Program-made: the position numbers and the translations under genes
In this document: positions 2,483-57,269 of the stretch, piece after piece
How positions within the stretch are numbered: position 1 is the first letter of the stretch
Layout of the letters: each line of letters begins with the position of its first letter
The notes under the pieces: model-generated
Told to the model about the DNA's origin: nothing
The model's database searches: none
What the model saw: the letters and a program-made list of their open reading frames with translations, nothing else
Assembly (NCBI GenBank): GCA_947426525.1
Contig: CANEEJ010000004.1
Span: forward strand, 2,225 to 66,224
Reading direction: 5' to 3'
Length of the DNA stretch: 64,000 bases
From: an uncultured Clostridium sp.
GTDB lineage: Bacteria; Bacillota; Clostridia; TANB77; CAG-508

Positions 2483-3640
2483 TTATCCAAATAACCCACG
2501 TTTTTTAATTGGTGGTTGTTCATTCATCGTCCTAGCCAATTGCGCTAATAAATCTCTTTGCTCTTTGGTTAATTTTTTTGGAGTTTGAACGATTACTGTA
2601 AAAACAAAATCTCCTACGCTACTTGAGTTAACTGATTTAAATCCCTTATTACGAAGCGTAAATTTGGTTCCTGTTTGTGTCCCTTCTGGAATTTTATAAG
2701 TTTCTTTTGAACCATCAACCATTGGTATTTCTAAGTCTGCTCCTAACGTTGCTTGGGTAATAGTAATTGGAACTTCACACAACACATTATTTCCTTTTCT
2801 TGTATAAATACTATGTCTTTTAATTCTAACTGTTATATATAAATCTCCTTTTGGTCCACCTTTTTCTCCTGGTTCACCTTCGCCACGTAGCACTACTGTT
2901 TGATTATCATCAATTCCAGCAGGAATTTTTACTTTTATTTTTGGTTGTTTTCTAATCGTTCCTTTTCCATGGCAATGTTCACATGGTTCTTTGATAATTT
3001 CTCCTGTTCCATGACATGTACCACAAGTTCTTCTTGTTTGCATTTGTCCTAAAATAGTATTTTGCACTTGTGTAACTTGACCTGTTCCATTACATGTTGT
3101 ACATTTCATTTTGGAAGTACCAGGTTTTGCACCTGTTCCATGACAATTATCACAAGTATCGTTTCTGGTAATAATTACTTCTTTTTCAACTCCTAAAAAA
3201 GCTTGCTCAAAAGTAATATCCATATTCAAATTCAAATCTGCACCTTTTTTAGGTCCTGATTGTCTTCTAGATGAATTTCTTCCTCCAAATCCACCACCAA
3301 AGAAAGAGGAGAAAATATCTCCTAAATCTCCAAAGTCGCCAAAGTCTGATGTACTATAAGAATAATATCCTCCTTGTCCTCCAAAAGGTCCTCCTGCTCC
3401 ACCGAATCCTTGTGGTCCATCATGTCCAAATTGGTCATACATTCTTCTTTTTTGTGGGTCCGATAAATTCTCATATGCTTCATTTACTTCTTTAAATTTT
3501 GCTTCGGCTTCCGCTTTATTATCTGGATTTGCATCTGGATGGTATTTTTTTGCTAATTTTCGATAAGCTTTTTTTAACTCATCATCAGTTGCACTTTTAT
3601 TTACTCCTAATACTTCGTAATAGTCTCTTTTGCTTGCCAT
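2483..3640 (-). CDS. dnaJ: chaperone DnaJ
   Basis: J-domain with HPD, a G/F region, four CxxCxGxG repeats, and operon context. Confidence 0.97.
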
Positions 3641-3660
3641 TTTTTCTTTCCTCCTAAATC

Positions 3661-3704
3661 GGGATTTGAGGGACGCCCCTTAAAATCCCTCTTTTAAGGA
3701 TTTT
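3661..3704 (-). promoter_or_regulatory. mutually exclusive hairpins in the dnaJ leader
   Basis: GGGATTT (3661-67) and GGATTTT (3698-3704) can each pair with AAAATCCC (3682-89). The element ends a few nt from the dnaJ RBS, and the loop contains GAGGGACG. Confidence 0.45.
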
Positions 3705-3730
3705 AGGTACATTCCTTCTTTTTACTGAAT

Positions 3731-4087
3731 TTATTTTTCTTTATTTTCTCTTTCATAGTCTCTATTCATATTCGTATTATGTTTTTGAATATAGGCATTT
3801 GAAAACTCTTCTGACGATATATTCAATCGATTTAAAACCTCCATGTAATACATTTGTACATCTGTCATTTCCTCTACAAATCGATTTCTAACGTCCTGAT
3901 TTTCCATAATCTCATTAATTCCTTTTTTCTTGATGATAGAAATGCATTCTCCAATTTCTTCAATCATATATAATATATGATTTTTAGCATATTGCGGTTC
4001 TCTGTCGCCCCATTTATCTTTGTTTCTTTCATACAATTCTAATTGCATTTTCTGCATTTCAGATATGGTTAAATTTTTTTCTGACAT
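3731..4087 (-). CDS. MazG-like nucleotide pyrophosphohydrolase (small all-alpha NTP-PPase)
   Basis: 118 aa with an EEIGE..(x)..E..D pattern (MIEEIGECISII, VEEMTDVQMY) typical of MazG/dUTPase-like dimeric PPases. Confidence 0.55.
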   Translation of the reverse strand: MSEKNLTISEMQKMQLELYERNKDKWGDREPQYAKNHILYMIEEIGECISIIKKKGINEIMENQDVRNRFVEEMTDVQMYYMEVLNRLNISSEEFSNAYIQKHNTNMNRDYERENKEK

Positions 4088-4168
4088 AAATAGCTTCTCC
4101 TTAACTTTAAAAAATTGCCAATGGTTCCGAAGTTGCCATTTAACTCCGGAACCGTTGGCAACATTTAC

Positions 4169-6013
<1,845 letters not shown>

Positions 6014-20633: not shown

Positions 20634-20652
20634 TTGTCCACTATGGTGGAAA
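20634..20652. promoter_or_regulatory. 19-bp site TTGTCCACTATGGTGGAAA (copy 1)
   Basis: Identical to 20961-20979. Core is TCCAC-N4-GTGGA. Confidence 0.6.
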
Positions 20653-20706: not shown

Positions 20707-20907
20707 CTATGGTATAACTTTGTATAATTCTTTAATATCTACATTCAAAGCTGCTGAAATCCTTACAAGAACTGAAATTGATGGTTCTTTTTCGTTCTTC
20801 TCGATATAATTTAAGTGTGATGTTGAAATCCCTGTTATTTTTGCAAGTTGTTGCAAACTTACTCCTTTTTCTTTTCTAATCTTTTTTAATAAAATCTCTA
20901 CTCTCAT
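20707..20907 (-). CDS. XRE-family HTH regulator
   Basis: SLQQLAKITGISTSHLNYIE helix-turn-helix. GGTGGAAAG RBS precedes ATG at 20907. Confidence 0.8.
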   Translation of the reverse strand: MRVEILLKKIRKEKGVSLQQLAKITGISTSHLNYIEKNEKEPSISVLVRISAALNVDIKELYKVIP

Positions 20908-20960
20908 GCACTTTCCACCTTTTTTCTTTAGTATGTTCAATTTTTCTTATAACATACATT

Positions 20961-20979
20961 TTGTCCACTATGGTGGAAA
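20961..20979. promoter_or_regulatory. 19-bp site TTGTCCACTATGGTGGAAA (copy 2, in the XRE promoter)
   Basis: Lies between a TATAAT-like box and the XRE RBS on the minus strand. Confidence 0.6.
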
Positions 20980-21287: not shown

Positions 21288-21632
21288 CTAGTTCTCTTTC
21301 ATATAATTTGCATATGTATCAACAAATCTATTTAATTCGTCTTGTGTTACTGAACCAATTTTAAATTGTATTTCGTCTTCTGAAATTTCAATTAAGTCAT
21401 CGCATTTTACAATACTATCTTTTAATAAATTGTTTGTATTGTTTTTATTTAATCTTTCGTTGTATGGATATCCTTCTTTATTTAACTTTGAAGATAATAA
21501 AAATCCAAAATAATCAATATCTACTGCTTGTCCATCATCTATAATTACAAAGCTATGTCTTCTTCCTTTTTCTTCTGTTTTGTACATATAATTTGATACA
21601 AATACTATATCTCCAACACCAAACTTTTTCAT
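21288..21632 (-). CDS. PemK/MazF-like toxin
   Basis: GDIVFV...RRHSFVII...IVKCDDLIEIS pattern of the MazF SH3-like barrel. ATG at 21632 follows a GAAGGAG RBS. Confidence 0.55.
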   Translation of the reverse strand: MKKFGVGDIVFVSNYMYKTEEKGRRHSFVIIDDGQAVDIDYFGFLLSSKLNKEGYPYNERLNKNNTNNLLKDSIVKCDDLIEISEDEIQFKIGSVTQDELNRFVDTYANYMKEN

Positions 21633-21633
21633 T

Positions 21634-21807
21634 TTATCTTGTCGCTCCTTCGTTTCTAGAAGTATAATATATGATTTCATCTTCTGTTAAAGCTGTTTCT
21701 TTTCCTTCGTTTGTTTCAGAGAAATCTGAATATTTTTTTACTAATCCCTTCTTTTTAGCTTTTGCAATTAAATCTGTTACTTTAGATTTATAAAGATTAT
21801 TAACCAT
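21634..21807 (-). CDS. putative cognate antitoxin (57 aa)
   Basis: Small ORF immediately upstream, adjacent to the toxin start. GGGAGG RBS. Confidence 0.45.
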   Translation of the reverse strand: MVNNLYKSKVTDLIAKAKKKGLVKKYSDFSETNEGKETALTEDEIIYYTSRNEGATR

Positions 21808-22182
21808 GTTTATACCTCCCTTCAATATTATTTCAAATTATATATATTTAATACTATATTATTTCAAAAAACTGAATTTTGATAATATTATTATATCATA
21901 AATTTAACATAATATCAAATATATGCTTATCTTTTGTATATTCTTTATATCATTAAATATTTAAAATTGCAATATATTTTTTTGTATTTTATTATATTTT
22001 ATTATTTTTTCCTTTATTTTTCTGTTTTATTCATTATTATTTTTTCTTGATATTTAGCCAAAAAATCGACTTACGAGAATCGATTTCAAGCCGTTTTTAT
22101 TTTGTGTTAGACATGTTGTATTGCCTGATTTTAGCTGTTTTCAAGGTTTTTGAAAAATTTTAAAATTTTTTTGAAAAAGTAC

Positions 22183-22211
22183 TTGACATTGACGTACCGT
22201 TGTTATATAAT
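22183..22211 (+). promoter_or_regulatory. consensus sigma-A promoter P1 (TTGACA-17-TATAAT)
   Basis: -35 at 22183-88 and -10 at 22206-11. The spacer shares TTGACGTACCGTT with P2. Confidence 0.8.
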
Positions 22212-22244
22212 ACATTTAGTCTAGAAGAAAGGAGGAAAAATATT

Positions 22245-22355
22245 ATGAAGAAAATAATAAAAGCGTTGCTAAACACTAAGATAGCCGACAAACTAATCGA
22301 TAAGTGCTTAAGCAAACGCTCAGTAATCGAAATAGCTAATACTATTTCAAAATAG
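22245..22355 (+). CDS. 36-aa peptide MKKIIKALLNTKIADKLIDKCLSKRSVIEIANTISK
   Basis: GGAGGA RBS 7 nt upstream. Followed by the GAGAGGG-tctt-CCCTCTC hairpin. Below the track length cutoff. Confidence 0.45.
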   Translation: MKKIIKALLNTKIADKLIDKCLSKRSVIEIANTISK

Positions 22356-22430
22356 CACTCGAGAGGGTCTTCCCTCTCTTGTAATATTATTATATACAAT
22401 AATATATAAAAAATCAAGGGAGGATTAAAA

Positions 22431-22604
22431 ATGGACAAAAGAATTTTAAACATAAACTTTTACAAAAGTGGCAGTGGTAGCATTTCCTCAAAGGTTACTT
22501 TGCCAATTACAATACTTAGAAAAATGGGATTTACAGAAGATGACAGAACAGCTGAAATGACATACGATGAAGAAAAAAATCAAATAATTTTAAAAAAATT
22601 ATAA
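22431..22604 (+). CDS. AbrB/MazE/SpoVT-like small DNA-binding protein (57 aa)
   Basis: GGGAGGA RBS. SSKVTLPITILRKMGF..DD resembles the swapped-hairpin AbrB fold signature. Confidence 0.55.
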   Translation: MDKRILNINFYKSGSGSISSKVTLPITILRKMGFTEDDRTAEMTYDEEKNQIILKKL

Positions 22605-22611
22605 AAAAGTA

Positions 22612-22640
22612 TTGACATTGACGTACCGTTATGTTATAAT
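22612..22640 (+). promoter_or_regulatory. consensus sigma-A promoter P2 (TTGACA-17-TATAAT)
   Basis: The 19-nt block TTGACATTGACGTACCGTT is identical to P1. Confidence 0.8.
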
Positions 22641-22791
22641 TAATTTAACAAAAGCAAAGAGACTAGAAAATCAGTCGTCAAACAAGAATTTTCTAATCTC
22701 TGCAACATCTTGAAAGATGTATGGGAAAAGTATACCATAAATTTATCCATCTTTCAAGAGTTTTAAGAAAATTTGAAAGGTGGTTTTTATT
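22641..22791 (+). ncRNA. structured ~150-nt leader with alternative helices
   Basis: 13-bp stem 22658-70/22689-701 with 1 mismatch. TCTTGAAAGA (22708-17) can pair locally or with TCTTTCAAGA (22751-60). Confidence 0.4.
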
Positions 22792-23034
22792 ATGAAAAAA
22801 TTATTAATCGATGGAAGAGATATTGAAAATTGGAACTGGGATTTAGAAACAGATAGTTATGGGACAATTAAATGCATAGGAGAAGGAATTGTATTACATA
22901 GAGGAAGAGAAAAAAGCAAGCATATATACAAATATGAAGGAAGAAAATATATAGTAGACGAAACAAACAGTTTTAATACAGAAATATTAGACGTTACATT
23001 AATAGAGATAAGCGAAAAACAAATAATAGAATAA
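22792..23034 (+). CDS. hypothetical protein (80 aa)
   Basis: GAAAGGTGG RBS; no motif recognised. Confidence 0.55.
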   Translation: MKKLLIDGRDIENWNWDLETDSYGTIKCIGEGIVLHRGREKSKHIYKYEGRKYIVDETNSFNTEILDVTLIEISEKQIIE

Positions 23035-23055
23035 GAAAGGTAAAGGGTGATTAAT

Positions 23056-23388
23056 ATGAAAACTAATAAAATTTATGAAGTATGCAAAAAATTAAAGGAA
23101 GAAGAAAGAATTAAGACTTGGTATTGGGCTAATTGGAGATATTGGAACAACGTTCCGCAAATTAAACTAAATAACGGTGCTTTAGTAACTTTAGCTGAAG
23201 AATATTGCTATATGGGAAGTAAATCTATAAGAACTTTAGAAAGTAAATCTAAAAAAGAAATTAATAATATAATTAACAAAATTCTAGAAAACGAAAAATA
23301 TCTTTGTTGTGATAATTGTTACGATTATGAACATGCTATAGATGCTAAAAAAATGATAGAAATACAAAAAATCTGTGCAGAAGACTAA
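23056..23388 (+). CDS. hypothetical Trp/Cys-rich protein (110 aa)
   Basis: AAAGGGTGA RBS. Contains WYWANWRYW and CCDNC. Confidence 0.55.
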   Translation: MKTNKIYEVCKKLKEEERIKTWYWANWRYWNNVPQIKLNNGALVTLAEEYCYMGSKSIRTLESKSKKEINNIINKILENEKYLCCDNCYDYEHAIDAKKMIEIQKICAED

Positions 23389-23406: not shown

Positions 23407-24278
23407 ATGAAATTATATGATTTATTTGAAGCATATTTAGAAAATAAGGTGTTAGCAGAAAGCACTAAAAGAAGCTTGGAAGGAGATATAAAAAATGTGT
23501 ACAAACCATTTTTTAGGAACATTGAAATAGAACAAATAACGATGGATGACATTTGTAAATTTATAAATTTTAAAAAGGCTACTTGTGTGAAAAATGTTAC
23601 AATTTATGGATATTATAGACGTTTAAGTGCTTTCTTTAATTACGCAATAGAGAGAAATTTGCTTGTAAAAAATCCATGTAAAAATGTAAACATAGAACAT
23701 ACTTCTAATGTAAAAAAAGATTTGGATTATTCTAAACACTACATTAAAGAACTACTAAAATTATTTAAAAATACAAAATTTTATTATATGGTGCTATTTG
23801 ACTTACACACACGGATTACGAAAATGTGAATTACTTATATTAAAAAAAGAAGATTTTATTTTTAAAAGATTATTTGGCTTTTATTTTCCAACAAAACTAG
23901 TCGTAAAATCTCCGAAAACACACAGAATTAGAAGTATAAATCTAGATTTTAAAATTTCTTTCTTATTTATGCTTTATCTTAAAAATTTAGAAAAGGATGA
24001 ACTTTTATTTAAATTTAATGATTTTTATATAAGTAACAATTTTGGAAAAATCTTTAAATCTAGTAAGAATAAAAGAAAGATTAAACAAATACGATTTGCA
24101 GACATTAGACATATACACGCTTCTTACTTATTATCGAACTGTAAAAACAAAGCAAATTGCATAAAAATGGTGCAAGAAAGACTACGGACATTCTAACATA
24201 AGACAAACTTTTAATACTTATACGCATGTTCTAAAAGAAGACCAAAAACATGGTATTAGATGTCTAAATAAAATATAA
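23407..24278 (+). pseudogene. degenerate tyrosine recombinase (second integrase, at least 2 frame breaks)
   Basis: SAM-like N-domain in 23407-23829, core in 23798-24196 (RHIHASYLL). The C-terminal GHSNIRQTFNTYTHV is in a third frame, ending at 24278. Confidence 0.75.
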
Positions 24279-24284
24279 ATATAA

Positions 24285-24316
24285 AAAGCTAGACTAGAAT
24301 AATCTAATCTAGCTTT
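24285..24316. terminator. bidirectional terminator hairpin
   Basis: AAAGCTAGA-N14-TCTAGCTTT flanked by A- and T-runs, between convergent genes. Confidence 0.7.
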
Positions 24317-24322
24317 ATTTTT

Positions 24323-25054
24323 TTATCTAACTCCACCTAGCCATTTACAAAATCCAATTTTGTAATTATTGCTTCTATCTACTTTATATCTTACCATTGC
24401 TCTATTATTAAATATTCCAAAGCAATCACAACTTTCTCGTGGATTTAGACTTCCAATTCTAACGGTACAATTTGTATCTCCATATACAGTTTCACTTGTA
24501 CTTCCATTTTGATATGTCTTCATTTCTATATCCCTCCCATCATTTTTTACATTGTTATATATTACTGTTTGTCCGTTTAAATATGTATTTACCATATTTA
24601 GAAATCTTTGCCATCCCATATCTAAAGTCCTATGTGGGCAATACTTTCCAGACCAATCTTGATGTTTTTTTACTCTATCGATTCCCCATCCATATTGCTT
24701 CAAAAGATGTGCTACATATTCAGCTGTCAGTCTTTCAGCTTGTTCAAATTTTTCTCCTCCAGATTTGCTGTAACAGATTTCTATTCCTATGCTTTTCATA
24801 TTTCCATTACCTCTTCCGTCTCCAGCATGCCAAGCATTTCGATTAAACGGTATAGCAGTTACTACTCTTTCGTTATCTACAGCAACGTGGAAAGATGTCT
24901 TATTGTTATTTCCAATCATATAGCTTATTTCTGCCATAGCACTAGCATCATTAGCTGTATTATGTATTGTTATGTATTCTGCTTGCATTTCAAATGGACA
25001 TTTTATACTATACTTATTTCCTGGCATTACTACATTAGTTATTTGCATTTTCAT
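24323..25054 (-). CDS. endolysin: N-acetylmuramoyl-L-alanine amidase (Amidase_2/PGRP) with SH3b-like C-terminus
   Basis: ITIHNTAN...NAWHAGDG...HQDWSGKYCPHR, with position next to the holin. Confidence 0.88.
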   Translation of the reverse strand: MKMQITNVVMPGNKYSIKCPFEMQAEYITIHNTANDASAMAEISYMIGNNNKTSFHVAVDNERVVTAIPFNRNAWHAGDGRGNGNMKSIGIEICYSKSGGEKFEQAERLTAEYVAHLLKQYGWGIDRVKKHQDWSGKYCPHRTLDMGWQRFLNMVNTYLNGQTVIYNNVKNDGRDIEMKTYQNGSTSETVYGDTNCTVRIGSLNPRESCDCFGIFNNRAMVRYKVDRSNNYKIGFCKWLGGVR

Positions 25055-25157
25055 CACCCGCCTCATATTCAATTTCCAAAGTATTTTCTGCAATATTTTT
25101 TTGATACAATTCTTCTGTAAATTCTACATTTTCAATCATGATATTATCTTCTTCCAT
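25035..25157 (-). CDS. 40-aa acidic peptide between holin and endolysin
   Basis: GGAGGAG RBS; overlaps the endolysin start. Confidence 0.4.
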   Translation of the reverse strand: MEEDNIMIENVEFTEELYQKNIAENTLEIEYEAGDENANN

Positions 25158-55616: not shown

Positions 55617-55773
55617 AAAAATAAGGAAATAGATGTTCAAACCAACCACGACCTGACATTTATTTCCTCGCATAAGCACTTCGAAAAGTGATTATATTTG
55701 TATTATATATAAATATCCCTCATTTTTCAAGTGTTTGATAAAAAATATTTAGAAAAAAATGGAGGTTTTTTAT

Positions 55774-57051
55774 ATGAAAGCAGGAATTAGAAAAAACAAA
55801 TTAAAGAAAGGATTTAGTTATACGGTCTTTATTGATTATGGAATTGTAAATGGACACAGAAAAAGAGAACCTTTGGAAACCTTTTCAAGTAAAGGAATTG
55901 CTGAAAAATACCAAGCAAAAACACAAACTGAAATTGATAACAATAATTTTATTCATGTAACTGATATGAATTTTGGAGAACTTATTGATAAATGGATGGA
56001 AAATCATGTCTCAATAAATTGCGAACCCAATACTTACGAAGCATATAAAACAGTCAACGAAACTTATTTGAAGCCATGTCTTGGTCATATTCCATGTAGA
56101 ATATTATCAAGCCCAAAAGGAACCGATATAATTAATGATTACTATAAATATTTAAGATTTGGCTTACAAAAAGAAGGAAGGAAAAATCTTTCCTTTTCTA
56201 CTGTTGAACATCATAAAGCACAAATTTCTGGTGCTTTAGCATATGGTGTACATTCTAAAAAAATAACAAATAATTCATGTACGCAAAGTAAAATTCCTAA
56301 GACTGAAAATGAAAAAACAAACGACATCATAATCGACGATGTTGAAAATTTTCAAGATACTGAATTATATGAAGACGAAGAATTTATAACCCCCGAACAA
56401 GCAGTTCAAGTGTTAAATTTATTTATGAACACACCAATGATGGTTCCTGTATTTTTGGCAGCACTTGTTGGATTAAGAAGAAGCGAAATTGCTGGTATTT
56501 TAAAAAATGCAATTAACAAAGAACAACAAACATTACAAATTAGAACAGTTCGAGTAAAATGTGGCAAAAAAACAGTATTTAAGAAAAAGACTAAAAATAA
56601 AACTTCTTCCAGGCTTCTATATTTACCCAATATTGTATTAAAAATATTGGAATTAGACGAGAAAAGACAACAAGAAAATAAGCAACTATATCAAGAAAAA
56701 TATATGGAAACAAATTTTTTGTGTGTTATGGATAATGGGCAACCTATAAGAGTAAATTATATGAGTGAAAAATTTAAGAAAGTATTTGATAAATTTATAA
56801 AAGAAGAAACCGAAAAAGCAAAAAAAGATGGAAAAGATTTTAAATTCCCATATATTACACTACATAAGTTAAGACATTTAAACATAAGTGCTTTGCTTGC
56901 AAATGGAGCATATCTAACAGATGTGCAAGATAACGTTGGTCATTCTACTATAAAAACTACTATGGGATATACACATCACTACACAAAAGGAAAAAAAGAA
57001 ATTGCAAACATAACTGATAAAATATATGAACATCTAATTAAGACAAGTTAA
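55774..57051 (+). CDS. int: tyrosine integrase
   Basis: C-terminal HKLRH...GHSTIKTTMGYTH catalytic signature. Next to attachment site and tRNA. Confidence 0.92.
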   Translation: MKAGIRKNKLKKGFSYTVFIDYGIVNGHRKREPLETFSSKGIAEKYQAKTQTEIDNNNFIHVTDMNFGELIDKWMENHVSINCEPNTYEAYKTVNETYLKPCLGHIPCRILSSPKGTDIINDYYKYLRFGLQKEGRKNLSFSTVEHHKAQISGALAYGVHSKKITNNSCTQSKIPKTENEKTNDIIIDDVENFQDTELYEDEEFITPEQAVQVLNLFMNTPMMVPVFLAALVGLRRSEIAGILKNAINKEQQTLQIRTVRVKCGKKTVFKKKTKNKTSSRLLYLPNIVLKILELDEKRQQENKQLYQEKYMETNFLCVMDNGQPIRVNYMSEKFKKVFDKFIKEETEKAKKDGKDFKFPYITLHKLRHLNISALLANGAYLTDVQDNVGHSTIKTTMGYTHHYTKGKKEIANITDKIYEHLIKTS

Positions 57052-57109: not shown

Positions 57110-57178
57110 AGATAAAACATTTTTTTAGTTATTTAAAATATGAATAAAAAGCTCAACCCTTCTAAAATCAAGTTATAT

Positions 57179-57269
57179 GGCGGAGTGAGTGGGATTCGAA
57201 CCCACGGGCCGATTTCTCGACTACTACAGTTCCAGTGTAGCTCGTTATGACCACTTCGATACCACTCCA
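57179..57269 (-). tRNA. tRNA-Ser (anticodon GGA), 91 nt, CCA encoded
   Basis: Manual fold gives acceptor GGAGTGG/TCACTCC, anticodon loop CUGGAAC, a long variable arm GTCGA-GAAA-TCGGC, and T-loop TTCGAAT. Confidence 0.9.

Follow-up and report, generated by a model that had tools for sequence, protein, structure and literature searches.

We analysed a 64,000-nucleotide (nt) stretch of DNA from an uncultured Clostridium sp. (hereafter the window), which is low in GC content (~30%) and contains a prophage of ~37 kb. Between the lysin gene of this prophage and its left end lies an island of small genes with two consensus promoters, P1 and P2, and a gene for a small AbrB-like protein between them. 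Related islands, here called cassettes, were found on other contigs and compared with the window. The features of the island, from its upstream side to its last hairpin, are as follows (aa, amino acids; ORF, open reading frame; RBS, ribosome-binding site).

22046-22182, plus strand: conserved A/T-tract platform upstream of P1, which aligns across cassettes of every regulator type
22183-22211, plus strand: P1, consensus sigma-70-type promoter TTGACA-17-TATAAT, 12 of 12 hexamer positions
22245-22355, plus strand: gene for a 36-aa amphipathic basic peptide, allele A, preceded by a strong Shine-Dalgarno (SD) sequence
22360-22381, plus strand: GC-rich hairpin, starting 5 nt past the peptide stop codon and listed by the terminator scan
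22389-22417, minus strand: antisense promoter-like site TTGATT-17-TATAAT, directed towards the hairpin and the 3′-terminal part of the peptide ORF and listed by the scan of the window
22431-22604, plus strand: gene for a 57-aa SpoVT/AbrB-like DNA-binding protein, the putative repressor
22612-22640, plus strand: P2, consensus promoter TTGACA-17-TATAAT, 12 of 12 hexamer positions, starting 8 nt past the regulator stop codon
22658-22701, plus strand: stem-loop in the 5′ leader of P2, predicted by RNAfold (arms 22658-22670 and 22689-22701; 12 pairs and one C-A mismatch)
22704-22783, plus strand: cargo-linked leader element with segment 1 (UCUUGAAAGA, 22708-22717), segment 2 (UCUUUCAAGA, 22750-22759) and RBS (UUGAAAGGUGG, 22773-22783)
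22792-23034, plus strand: gene for an 80-aa protein, an optional cargo gene with one homologue cluster among 5.8 billion proteins
23056-23388, plus strand: gene for a 110-aa Trp-rich protein (dN/dS 0.17)
23407-24278, plus strand: gene for an Xer-like tyrosine recombinase in three frames, with apparent +1 shifts at the CGG codons 23812-23814 and 24185-24187
24285-24316: hairpin common to the P2 operon and the converging lysin gene, with T-runs on both strands (inverted repeat I14)

Perfect TTGACA-N17-TATAAT sites were found three times on the two strands of the whole window, against an expected number of 0.03. P1 and P2 share the 19-mer TTGACATTGACGTACCGTT (22183-22201 and 22612-22630). No other copy of it was present in the window even when three mismatches were allowed, and shuffled sequences gave none. 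An operator core, GACGTACCGTT, lies within the promoter spacer, at 22191-22201 in P1 and 22620-22630 in P2. The regulon of the AbrB-like protein appears to be local, because this core was found nowhere else in the window. A preliminary description of the same DNA had reported the twin promoters and their common block, and both proved exact. The extremely AT-rich gap of ~350 bp that it placed before P1 measured 357 nt with 17% GC (21826-22182), and the 36-aa peptide, the GC-rich hairpin, the 57-aa ORF and two downstream ORFs of unknown function were all as it described them.

The 57-aa gene lay between two promoters of identical motif wherever a contig reached the upstream region. It was under strong purifying selection (dN/dS 0.05-0.29 at pS of 0.33-0.61). 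Its product matched phrog_2329 (E=2.9e-18), a family without assigned function, and scored below the curated cut-off of 24.7 against Pfam MazE_antitoxin (13 bits, E=0.1). The best sequence match in the Protein Data Bank (PDB) was the AbrB N-domain (E=0.39), with residues 21-56 aligned and the motif included. The AlphaFold2 (AF2) monomer was a single small domain with a predicted local distance difference test score (pLDDT) of 79. Six of the seven best Foldseek matches of this model were AbrB-N, Sso7c4 or the histone-like structures 5itj/5itm; their probabilities were 0.54-0.87, their template-modelling (TM) scores ~0.5 and their E values 0.2-0.7, with the query a monomer of a fold that exists only as an intertwined dimer. 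We take 5itj/5itm to belong to the same superfamily as Sso7c4, which is described as a SpoVT-AbrB member. A phage homologue of the 57-aa protein is annotated as AbrB/MazE/SpoVT-family. The phrog_2329 match and the AbrB-type Foldseek matches, together with the sub-threshold Pfam score, lend weak though consistent support to the AbrB-like binder proposed in the preliminary description. By sequence and model the protein appears to be a bare DNA-binding domain, without room for a toxin-binding tail. It had six homologue clusters among the 5.8 billion proteins; a search with the AbrB alignment returned one distant relative only in IMG/VR, and a single Clostridiaceae metagenome-assembled genome (MAG) among species-representative genomes.

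Cassettes were retrieved from the contigs of homologues of the 110-aa, 80-aa and 57-aa proteins, which were scarce. Ten distinct cassettes were obtained: that of the window and L001, L010, L014, L017, L019, L020, L021, L022 and L023. A further locus, L011, has the control unit of L010 and different cargo. The order of the parts was constant. The first half consists of the A/T platform, P1, an ORF of 36-40 aa, the GC hairpin and a 40-nt A/T spacer, and the second half of the small DNA-binding protein, P2, the leader hairpin and the cargo. In AbrB-type cassettes P2 began 6-12 nt past the regulator stop codon. Wherever the contig extends far enough (L001, L010, L011, L014 and L022), the cassette lies directly beyond the prophage genes for lysin and holin and is convergent with them. 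Different lysins stand beside the cassettes (Amidase_2, CHAP, GH25 and C39 peptidase), indicating different phage backbones. The hosts are probably Clostridia, because agr genes, mraZ/rsmH or Spo0E-like genes were found in sister loci, one of which is a Clostridiaceae MAG.

Comparison of the cassettes revealed a matched series of regulators and promoter motifs. The AbrB type 1 regulator was paired with ACGTACCGTT, which was invariant in 14 of 14 promoters of seven distinct AbrB-type cassettes. The spacer positions flanking this core varied, and the synonymous sites of the adjacent regulator gene differed by 33-61%. In L019 the core was displaced by 1 nt relative to the -35 hexamer, yet it was intact in both promoters. 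L023 encodes a divergent 60-aa AbrB-like protein in which the putative recognition segment is changed, and it carries GACGTTACGTCGT in both P1 and P2. In L001 and L022 the regulator is replaced by an unrelated 50-aa protein, and the P1 spacer carries the palindrome AGTGTGTACACACT. Regulator type and promoter-embedded motif change together. The invariance of the core and its match to the regulator type support the view, already taken in the preliminary description, that the shared 19-nt block acts like an operator. At least six unrelated cargo sets were found behind this one AbrB-like regulator and its putative operator, and the cargo set of the window (leader, 80-aa protein, 110-aa protein and recombinase) was found behind three different regulators. 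Modules are exchanged between cassettes.

The ~130 nt 5′ of P1 were conserved in all other cassettes regardless of regulator type. This platform includes AAATCGA...TCGATTT; in L001 both arms have a C-to-T change, and G-U pairing is then kept on the plus strand only. In the window the platform includes TTAGCCAAAAAATCGACTTACGAGAATCGATTT, AAGCCGTTTTTATTTT and TTTTTTTGAAAAAGTA, the last of which touches the -35 hexamer of P1. It may be an UP element or a binding site for another factor. A scan of IMG/VR did not find the 19-mer, and the conserved upstream 23-mer was not found in JGI metagenomes. The operator pattern gave at least 120 single chance matches in the JGI metagenomes, none of them in promoter context. 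Inverted repeats able to make P1 or P2 an invertible switch for the recombinase were looked for, and none were found.

In our view the region is probably a single representative of a modular accessory-gene cassette that regulates itself (a regulated "moron" platform) and that is carried by a family of temperate phages infecting low-GC anaerobes. The AbrB-type protein would bind a motif of 10-13 nt in the 17-nt spacer of both consensus promoters and block RNA polymerase, and would in this way limit both its own operon and the cargo operon. Repression is proposed for both operons because their promoters are already optimal, and a protein bound in the spacer could do no more than hinder RNA polymerase. 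On entry into a cell without repressor, both promoters would fire fully until repressor accumulates; in the lysogen both would idle at a low and self-limited level. The exchangeable P2 cargo consists here of a leader with a predicted alternative fold that sequesters the RBS, the 80-aa and 110-aa proteins, and an Xer-like recombinase needing two +1 frameshifts. The island proved real and non-random, and the comparison best supports a modular unit that represses itself and expresses exchangeable accessory genes of the phage, a variation on a known regulatory theme.

Several points weigh against this explanation. We infer binding, repression and promoter use from sequence, and likewise expression timing and cargo function. 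The sequence and structure scores behind the assignment to the AbrB fold are below threshold, and the AbrB-like protein could act on host targets instead; Spo0E-like proteins are among the products of neighbouring accessory genes in sister prophages. Common descent of the cassettes means that part of their conservation is inherited rather than selected. Twin promoters are not universal: the cassettes with the 50-aa regulator (L001 and L022), which we provisionally call ribbon-helix-helix (RHH) type, have no recognisable P2. In its place they carry a long hairpin whose arms repeat the outer half-sites, with one compensatory change between the two loci. The RHH assignment itself has no database support and stays a pattern-based guess. 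These data cannot tell an "entry pulse" from expression in the lysogen, and we give no better than an even chance to the role that we favour for the cargo, namely establishment or anti-defence functions delivered as such a pulse.

The peptide gene occurs as three alleles. Alleles A and B had pN/pS of 0.13-0.51, and allele C is a single sequence. The ORF is a real gene and is under purifying selection. The peptide had no family match in PADLOC, Pfam, NCBIfam or PHROGs. Its alleles combine freely with the regulator types, which argues against a specific protein-protein partnership with the regulator. The structure of the GC hairpin was kept in 10 of 10 cassettes with four stem sequences (GAGAGGG/CCCTCTC, GAGAGGA/TCCTCTC, GGGGG/CCCCC and GGGGAGA/TCTCCCC). 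No proper U-tract follows it; hence it is not a classical terminator. A minus-strand TTGNNN-17-TATAAT site with a perfect -10 hexamer was present at the equivalent position in all ten cassettes. Transcription from such a promoter would run against that from P1 and yield an RNA complementary to the hairpin and to the last part of the peptide ORF, and the combination of hairpin and antisense promoter resembles a type I toxin-antitoxin (TA) locus or an attenuator acting through antisense RNA. In eight of the ten cassettes, but not in the window, the TTG of the hairpin arm and a -10 hexamer 17 nt further on make up a plus-strand promoter for the regulator gene; it was kept out of the model.

These features bear on a second explanation, which can coexist with the regulated cassette and which we regard as rather unlikely: P1 would express a 36-aa toxin or growth modulator, restrained by an antisense RNA started from 22417-22389 that covers the hairpin and the 3′ end of the peptide mRNA, and the AbrB-like protein and the cargo would be add-ons. 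Firmicutes prophages are a typical home of type I TA loci, among them txpA/ratA and bsrG/SR4. Such loci and the island both combine, within a prophage, a small peptide gene and a convergent antisense promoter, putative in the island, that is directed at the 3′ end of the gene. The fixed position of the antisense site, the structured element between the two convergent promoters, and a peptide gene under purifying selection behind a consensus promoter all fit this explanation. However, alleles A and B of the peptide are charged and amphipathic and not hydrophobic, unlike most type I toxins, and Rfam gave no family match at gathering or relaxed thresholds. The gene is, moreover, part of a larger operon under regulation. 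No minus-strand terminator that would define where the antisense RNA ends was found between 22380 and 21830, and A/T-only spacers readily give promoter-like hexamers.

The Clostridioides difficile phage phiCD24-1 (L024) has distant homologues of the regulator at the equivalent genome position, between integrase and amidase. In its region 3040-4420 a module of a 42-aa peptide, a hairpin, a 55-aa protein with two transmembrane segments and a 58-aa AbrB-like protein is tandemly duplicated, and the genes of the module are annotated only as conserved proteins of unknown function. This module is a distant cousin of the window control unit, and its combination of peptide, hairpin, membrane protein and AbrB-like protein counts in favour of the type I TA explanation. 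In L010 (1108-1269) and L023 (5367-5537) the cassette is preceded by an additional gene for a small membrane protein, which has a promoter of its own and a long, structured leader rich in GC. The window lacks this gene, which may be an independent moron resembling a type I toxin.

The leader of P2 is ~145 nt long up to the ATG at 22792. In the short-leader cassettes its hairpin occurs as two alleles that are four double compensatory changes apart, which points to a selected structure; the version in the window is longer. The hairpin is perhaps an mRNA-stabilising 5′ hairpin. Further downstream, the decamers TCTTGAAAGA (22708-22717) and TCTTTCAAGA (22750-22759) are the arms of a possible switch. 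Segment 2 can pair either with segment 1, which leaves the RBS free, or with the RBS, which is then sequestered; one alternative appeared in the minimum free energy (MFE) fold and the other in the centroid fold. In the four cassettes with this cargo (those of the window, L001, L022 and L023), UCUUUCAAGA is able to pair with an upstream UCUUGAAAGA-like segment or with the RBS UUGAAAGG, and the architecture seen in L001 is the same as in the window. The leader helix was kept in all four, and the inner hairpin that it encloses has been swapped for an unrelated one. Support for the alternative pairing consists of one-sided (wobble) changes only. These features fit a switch-like leader. Mutually exclusive helices had been proposed in the preliminary description; both pairings were recovered in the folds and the helices are conserved, but the stem has 12 pairs rather than 13 and the second decamer lies at 22750-22759, one base off the position first given.

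The two cargo proteins after the leader had no match above noise in Pfam, NCBIfam, PHROGs or PADLOC, and the 80-aa protein had none in the PDB. The 80-aa gene is absent from L001, where the junction lies at a repeated GAAAGGT. The 110-aa protein had two close homologue clusters among the 5.8 billion proteins and 11 remote relatives, and a distant homologue of it is the third cargo gene of L021, an AbrB-type cassette. Structure prediction and a search for similar folds, which had been suggested for this protein, gave a confident AF2 model (pLDDT 93) with no fold match in PDB or BFVD and none with a TM score above 0.45. The two proteins had been described as lacking recognisable motifs, one of them being rich in Trp and Cys. 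The absence of a known family and the Trp residues were borne out, the latter being conserved in the 110-aa family. The Cys residues are not conserved in the homologues, and "Cys-rich" was rejected as a functional feature.

The cargo of the sister cassettes was diverse. It includes several acidic proteins of 71-188 aa, a double zinc-ribbon protein, and zinc-ribbon proteins with a C-terminal domain that we read as AP2-like and that match PHROGs annotated as HNH endonucleases. A stand-alone Cas5b homologue is cargo behind a presumably AbrB-controlled P2 in two cassettes, intact in L017 (3365-4075) and as two ORFs in L020 (1322-2039); it scored 48 bits against Pfam Cas_Cas5d and E=2e-32 against PADLOC Cas5b. 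This protein could be a decoy subunit against type I-B CRISPR-Cas. As a hint of anti-defence cargo, its presence in L017 and L020 is suggestive only.

The cargo and its surroundings also bear on a third explanation, a prophage defence, exclusion or type II TA system in which an AbrB/MazE-like antitoxin or regulator accompanies 80-aa and 110-aa effectors expressed in the lysogen. We consider this improbable. A position between the lysin gene and the attachment site, with own promoters, is common for lysogen-expressed genes in Gram-positive prophages, a genuine MazF/PemK-like pair adjoins the island (21288-21825, minus strand), and the putative effectors are conserved and under purifying selection. 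However, the 57-aa regulator lacks the toxin-binding tail of an antitoxin, and no conserved toxin gene is adjacent to it; P2 and the 145-nt leader stand between it and the "effectors". At least six cassettes with the same regulator carry different downstream genes, and cargo and regulator assort independently. The 80-aa gene is dispensable, and no known toxin or defence family was recovered for the window proteins in PADLOC or Pfam, where Cmr5 (E=0.0046) and DUF6165 (E=0.001) were noise below the cut-offs. An operon that ends in a recombinase is also not a defence-like layout. A dedicated four-ORF TA, abortive-infection or exclusion system, as the preliminary description had envisaged, is contradicted by this independent assortment of parts across related cassettes. 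The four ORFs are not a fixed set, the 80-aa gene being missing from L001. The anatomy in that description was right, and its functional label was too narrow.

The recombinase gene starts 18 nt past the 110-aa gene. It had been taken for a dead integrase, and no single continuous frame encodes it; three frames are needed. The shift contexts are ACA-CGG-A and CTA-CGG-A, and TGLRKCEL and RLGHS...NTYTHV are recovered when the C is skipped. With both +1 shifts made, GLRKCEL, IRHIHAS and NTYTHV (with the catalytic Tyr) are all present, which gives the full motif set of a tyrosine recombinase (R, H-x-x-R, Y). The recoded product of 289 aa had 93-97% coverage against intact phage recombinases and matched the XerA and XerD models over residues 7-280. 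CGG was invariant at both sites in five lineages, while the neighbouring Leu codon drifted among CTA, TTG and TTA and the His codon between CAC and CAT. Between the window and L001, dN/dS was 0.31 in the first segment and 0.19 in the second (dS 1.1-1.2), and there were no in-frame stops over ~290 codons in DNA of ~25% GC. CGG is nearly the rarest codon (5 in 13,778 codons, 0.36 per 1000), and GGA, which is read after the +1 shift, is used more often than any other Gly codon (40 per 1000).

The gene thus shows a conserved site with drifting flanks, a slow zero-frame codon and purifying selection downstream, as expected of programmed +1 frameshifting. No re-pairing in the P site is possible with ACA or CTA before CGG, no conserved SD-like element was found upstream of the shift sites, and no stimulatory signal was found at them. 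The two conserved shifts, which would restore a complete recombinase under purifying selection, speak against a dead integrase; the integrase is probably alive. We propose programmed +1 frameshifting at a hungry codon, so that very little recombinase would be made. The recombinase is probably the last gene of the P2 operon and not a boundary marker. The hairpin at 24285-24316 probably ends this operon, because T-runs stand on both sides of it; its minus strand was listed by the terminator scan, and the plus-strand reading AAAGCTAGACTAGA...TCTAATCTAGCTTTATTTTTTT is visible. Searches with the recombinase gave nothing among species-representative genomes, and searches with its N-domain gave nothing in IMG/VR. 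The heptanucleotide ACA-CGG-A of the first shift site also occurs elsewhere in the window, at codon 169 of 171 of a host ORF (13595-14110, minus strand).

The nearest precedent found for such a gene would be the terminase of Streptomyces phage Hau3, for which UUA-dependent bypassing, a recoding linked to a rare codon, has been proposed (PMC10732093). In both cases the gene of an essential phage enzyme is interrupted and needs non-standard decoding at a very rare codon (PMC10732093). The window differs in having two single-base +1 shifts rather than 10-nt bypasses, CGG as the rare codon, a recombinase gene and a low-GC host, and in that a stimulatory signal was looked for and not found. A more specific version of the regulated cassette is tentative and on balance doubtful: a portable "entry-pulse" unit built on AbrB or RHH repressors with matched operators would deliver the doubly +1-frameshifted Xer-like recombinase, whose output would be gated by the repressor and by the translational state or the supply of tRNA-Arg(CCG).

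The position of the island in the prophage was defined by the two copies of a direct repeat.

19865-19930: left end of the prophage, marked by a 66-nt direct repeat that copies the 3′ part of tRNA-Ser (97% identity across the 66 nt when the tRNA region was compared with the window by BLAST)
57174-57239: right-end partner of the repeat, within the tRNA-Ser gene 57178-57268 (ARAGORN)

The two repeats flank the region, which places the island inside the prophage. The right end carries an int-cI-cro module at 55-57 kb, with a canonical integrase (55759-57051), a CI-like repressor and a Cro-like protein. The late genes are on the minus strand and end with holin and amidase (24323-25093). The island, on the opposite strand, occupies part of the 4.4 kb that separate the amidase from the left repeat. 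The terminase is ~60% identical to terminases of Clostridioides, Clostridium and Fusobacterium phages. At the DNA level, one irrelevant AT-rich match to sequenced phages and none to plasmids was obtained.

The prophage has two recombinase genes, 32 kb apart. In the same 4.4 kb an XRE-family gene (20707-20940, minus strand) is flanked by a perfect 19-nt direct repeat, TTGTCCACTATGGTGGAAA, at 20634-20652 and 20961-20979, which includes the palindrome TCCACTATGGTGGA. The upstream copy of this repeat also lies beside the XRE gene in L023. This gene and its two repeats look like a second layout of one regulator with two identical operators.

A fourth explanation is that the cassette, the recombinase, the XRE gene and the TA pair are the relic of a second, small satellite-like integrative element trapped in the prophage, with the cassette as its lysogeny-side operon. 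The distance of the second recombinase gene from the canonical integrase module and the presence of an own XRE regulator with twin operators and a TA pair between left repeat and lysin gene would fit such a relic. We nevertheless hold it to be very improbable, as only two att repeats are present; a third was looked for and not found, and neither of the two lies near 24.2-24.3 kb. The cassette abuts the lysin gene in several phage backbones, most of them without a recombinase in the cassette, and the recombinase travels with the 110-aa cargo rather than with the control unit.

The regulated cassette, our preferred explanation, was compared with known systems. A classical moron consists of one gene with a simple promoter and a terminator. 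The morons and lysogenic-conversion cassettes that lie between lysin gene and attachment site in Gram-positive prophages resemble the island in genome position, in having their own promoters and terminator, in their orientation opposite to the late genes and in a content that varies between phages. The window differs from classical morons in its conserved control unit, in which a matched repressor and its operators appear to be reused before different cargo.

In acr-aca operons, and with the repressor Reg576 of plasmid p576, a small locus-encoded repressor has its site in strong promoters and the cargo is needed briefly on entry (PMC8708921). Like acr-aca operons, the window has a locus-encoded small DNA-binding protein beside variable small cargo. 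The site of the regulator overlaps a strong promoter there, and a regulator-matched motif lies in the spacers of P1 and P2 here. A burst on entry followed by shut-down is the behaviour expected of acr-aca operons (PMC8708921), and we propose the same for the window. The Cas5b homologue carried as cargo by a sister cassette is a further link. In contrast to acr-aca operons, the regulator here would be AbrB-like (or RHH-like) and not a helix-turn-helix (HTH) protein, it is encoded upstream and not downstream of the cargo, and two promoters with the same site are accompanied by a peptide gene, a hairpin and an antisense promoter-like site. No cargo protein here matched a known anti-defence family or inhibitor. 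Reg576, an RHH protein of p576 (pLS20 family, clade II), is one small repressor for its own and for other strong promoters of establishment genes, as proposed here. However, p576 is a conjugative plasmid and not a phage, the cargo families are unrelated, and Reg576 has dual-heptamer operators on the upstream or downstream side of the promoter, in contrast to the single motif within the spacer here.

If the small protein represses both promoters, the cassette would be a compact regulatory unit that is undescribed in the literature searched and is reused by phages of strictly anaerobic Firmicutes. The three matched pairs of regulator and motif would form a natural specificity series for the reading of DNA by AbrB-type proteins, and the recombinase is a candidate for a bacterial-virus gene that is expressed through two +1 frameshifts at a rare codon. 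Regulator and motif together may serve as a search handle for small proteins beyond the reach of homology classification, such as the 110-aa family, as Aca genes did for anti-CRISPRs. If the entry-pulse idea is true, this pair would provide a guilt-by-association handle for anti-defence and establishment genes in phages of Clostridia, including the stand-alone Cas5b.

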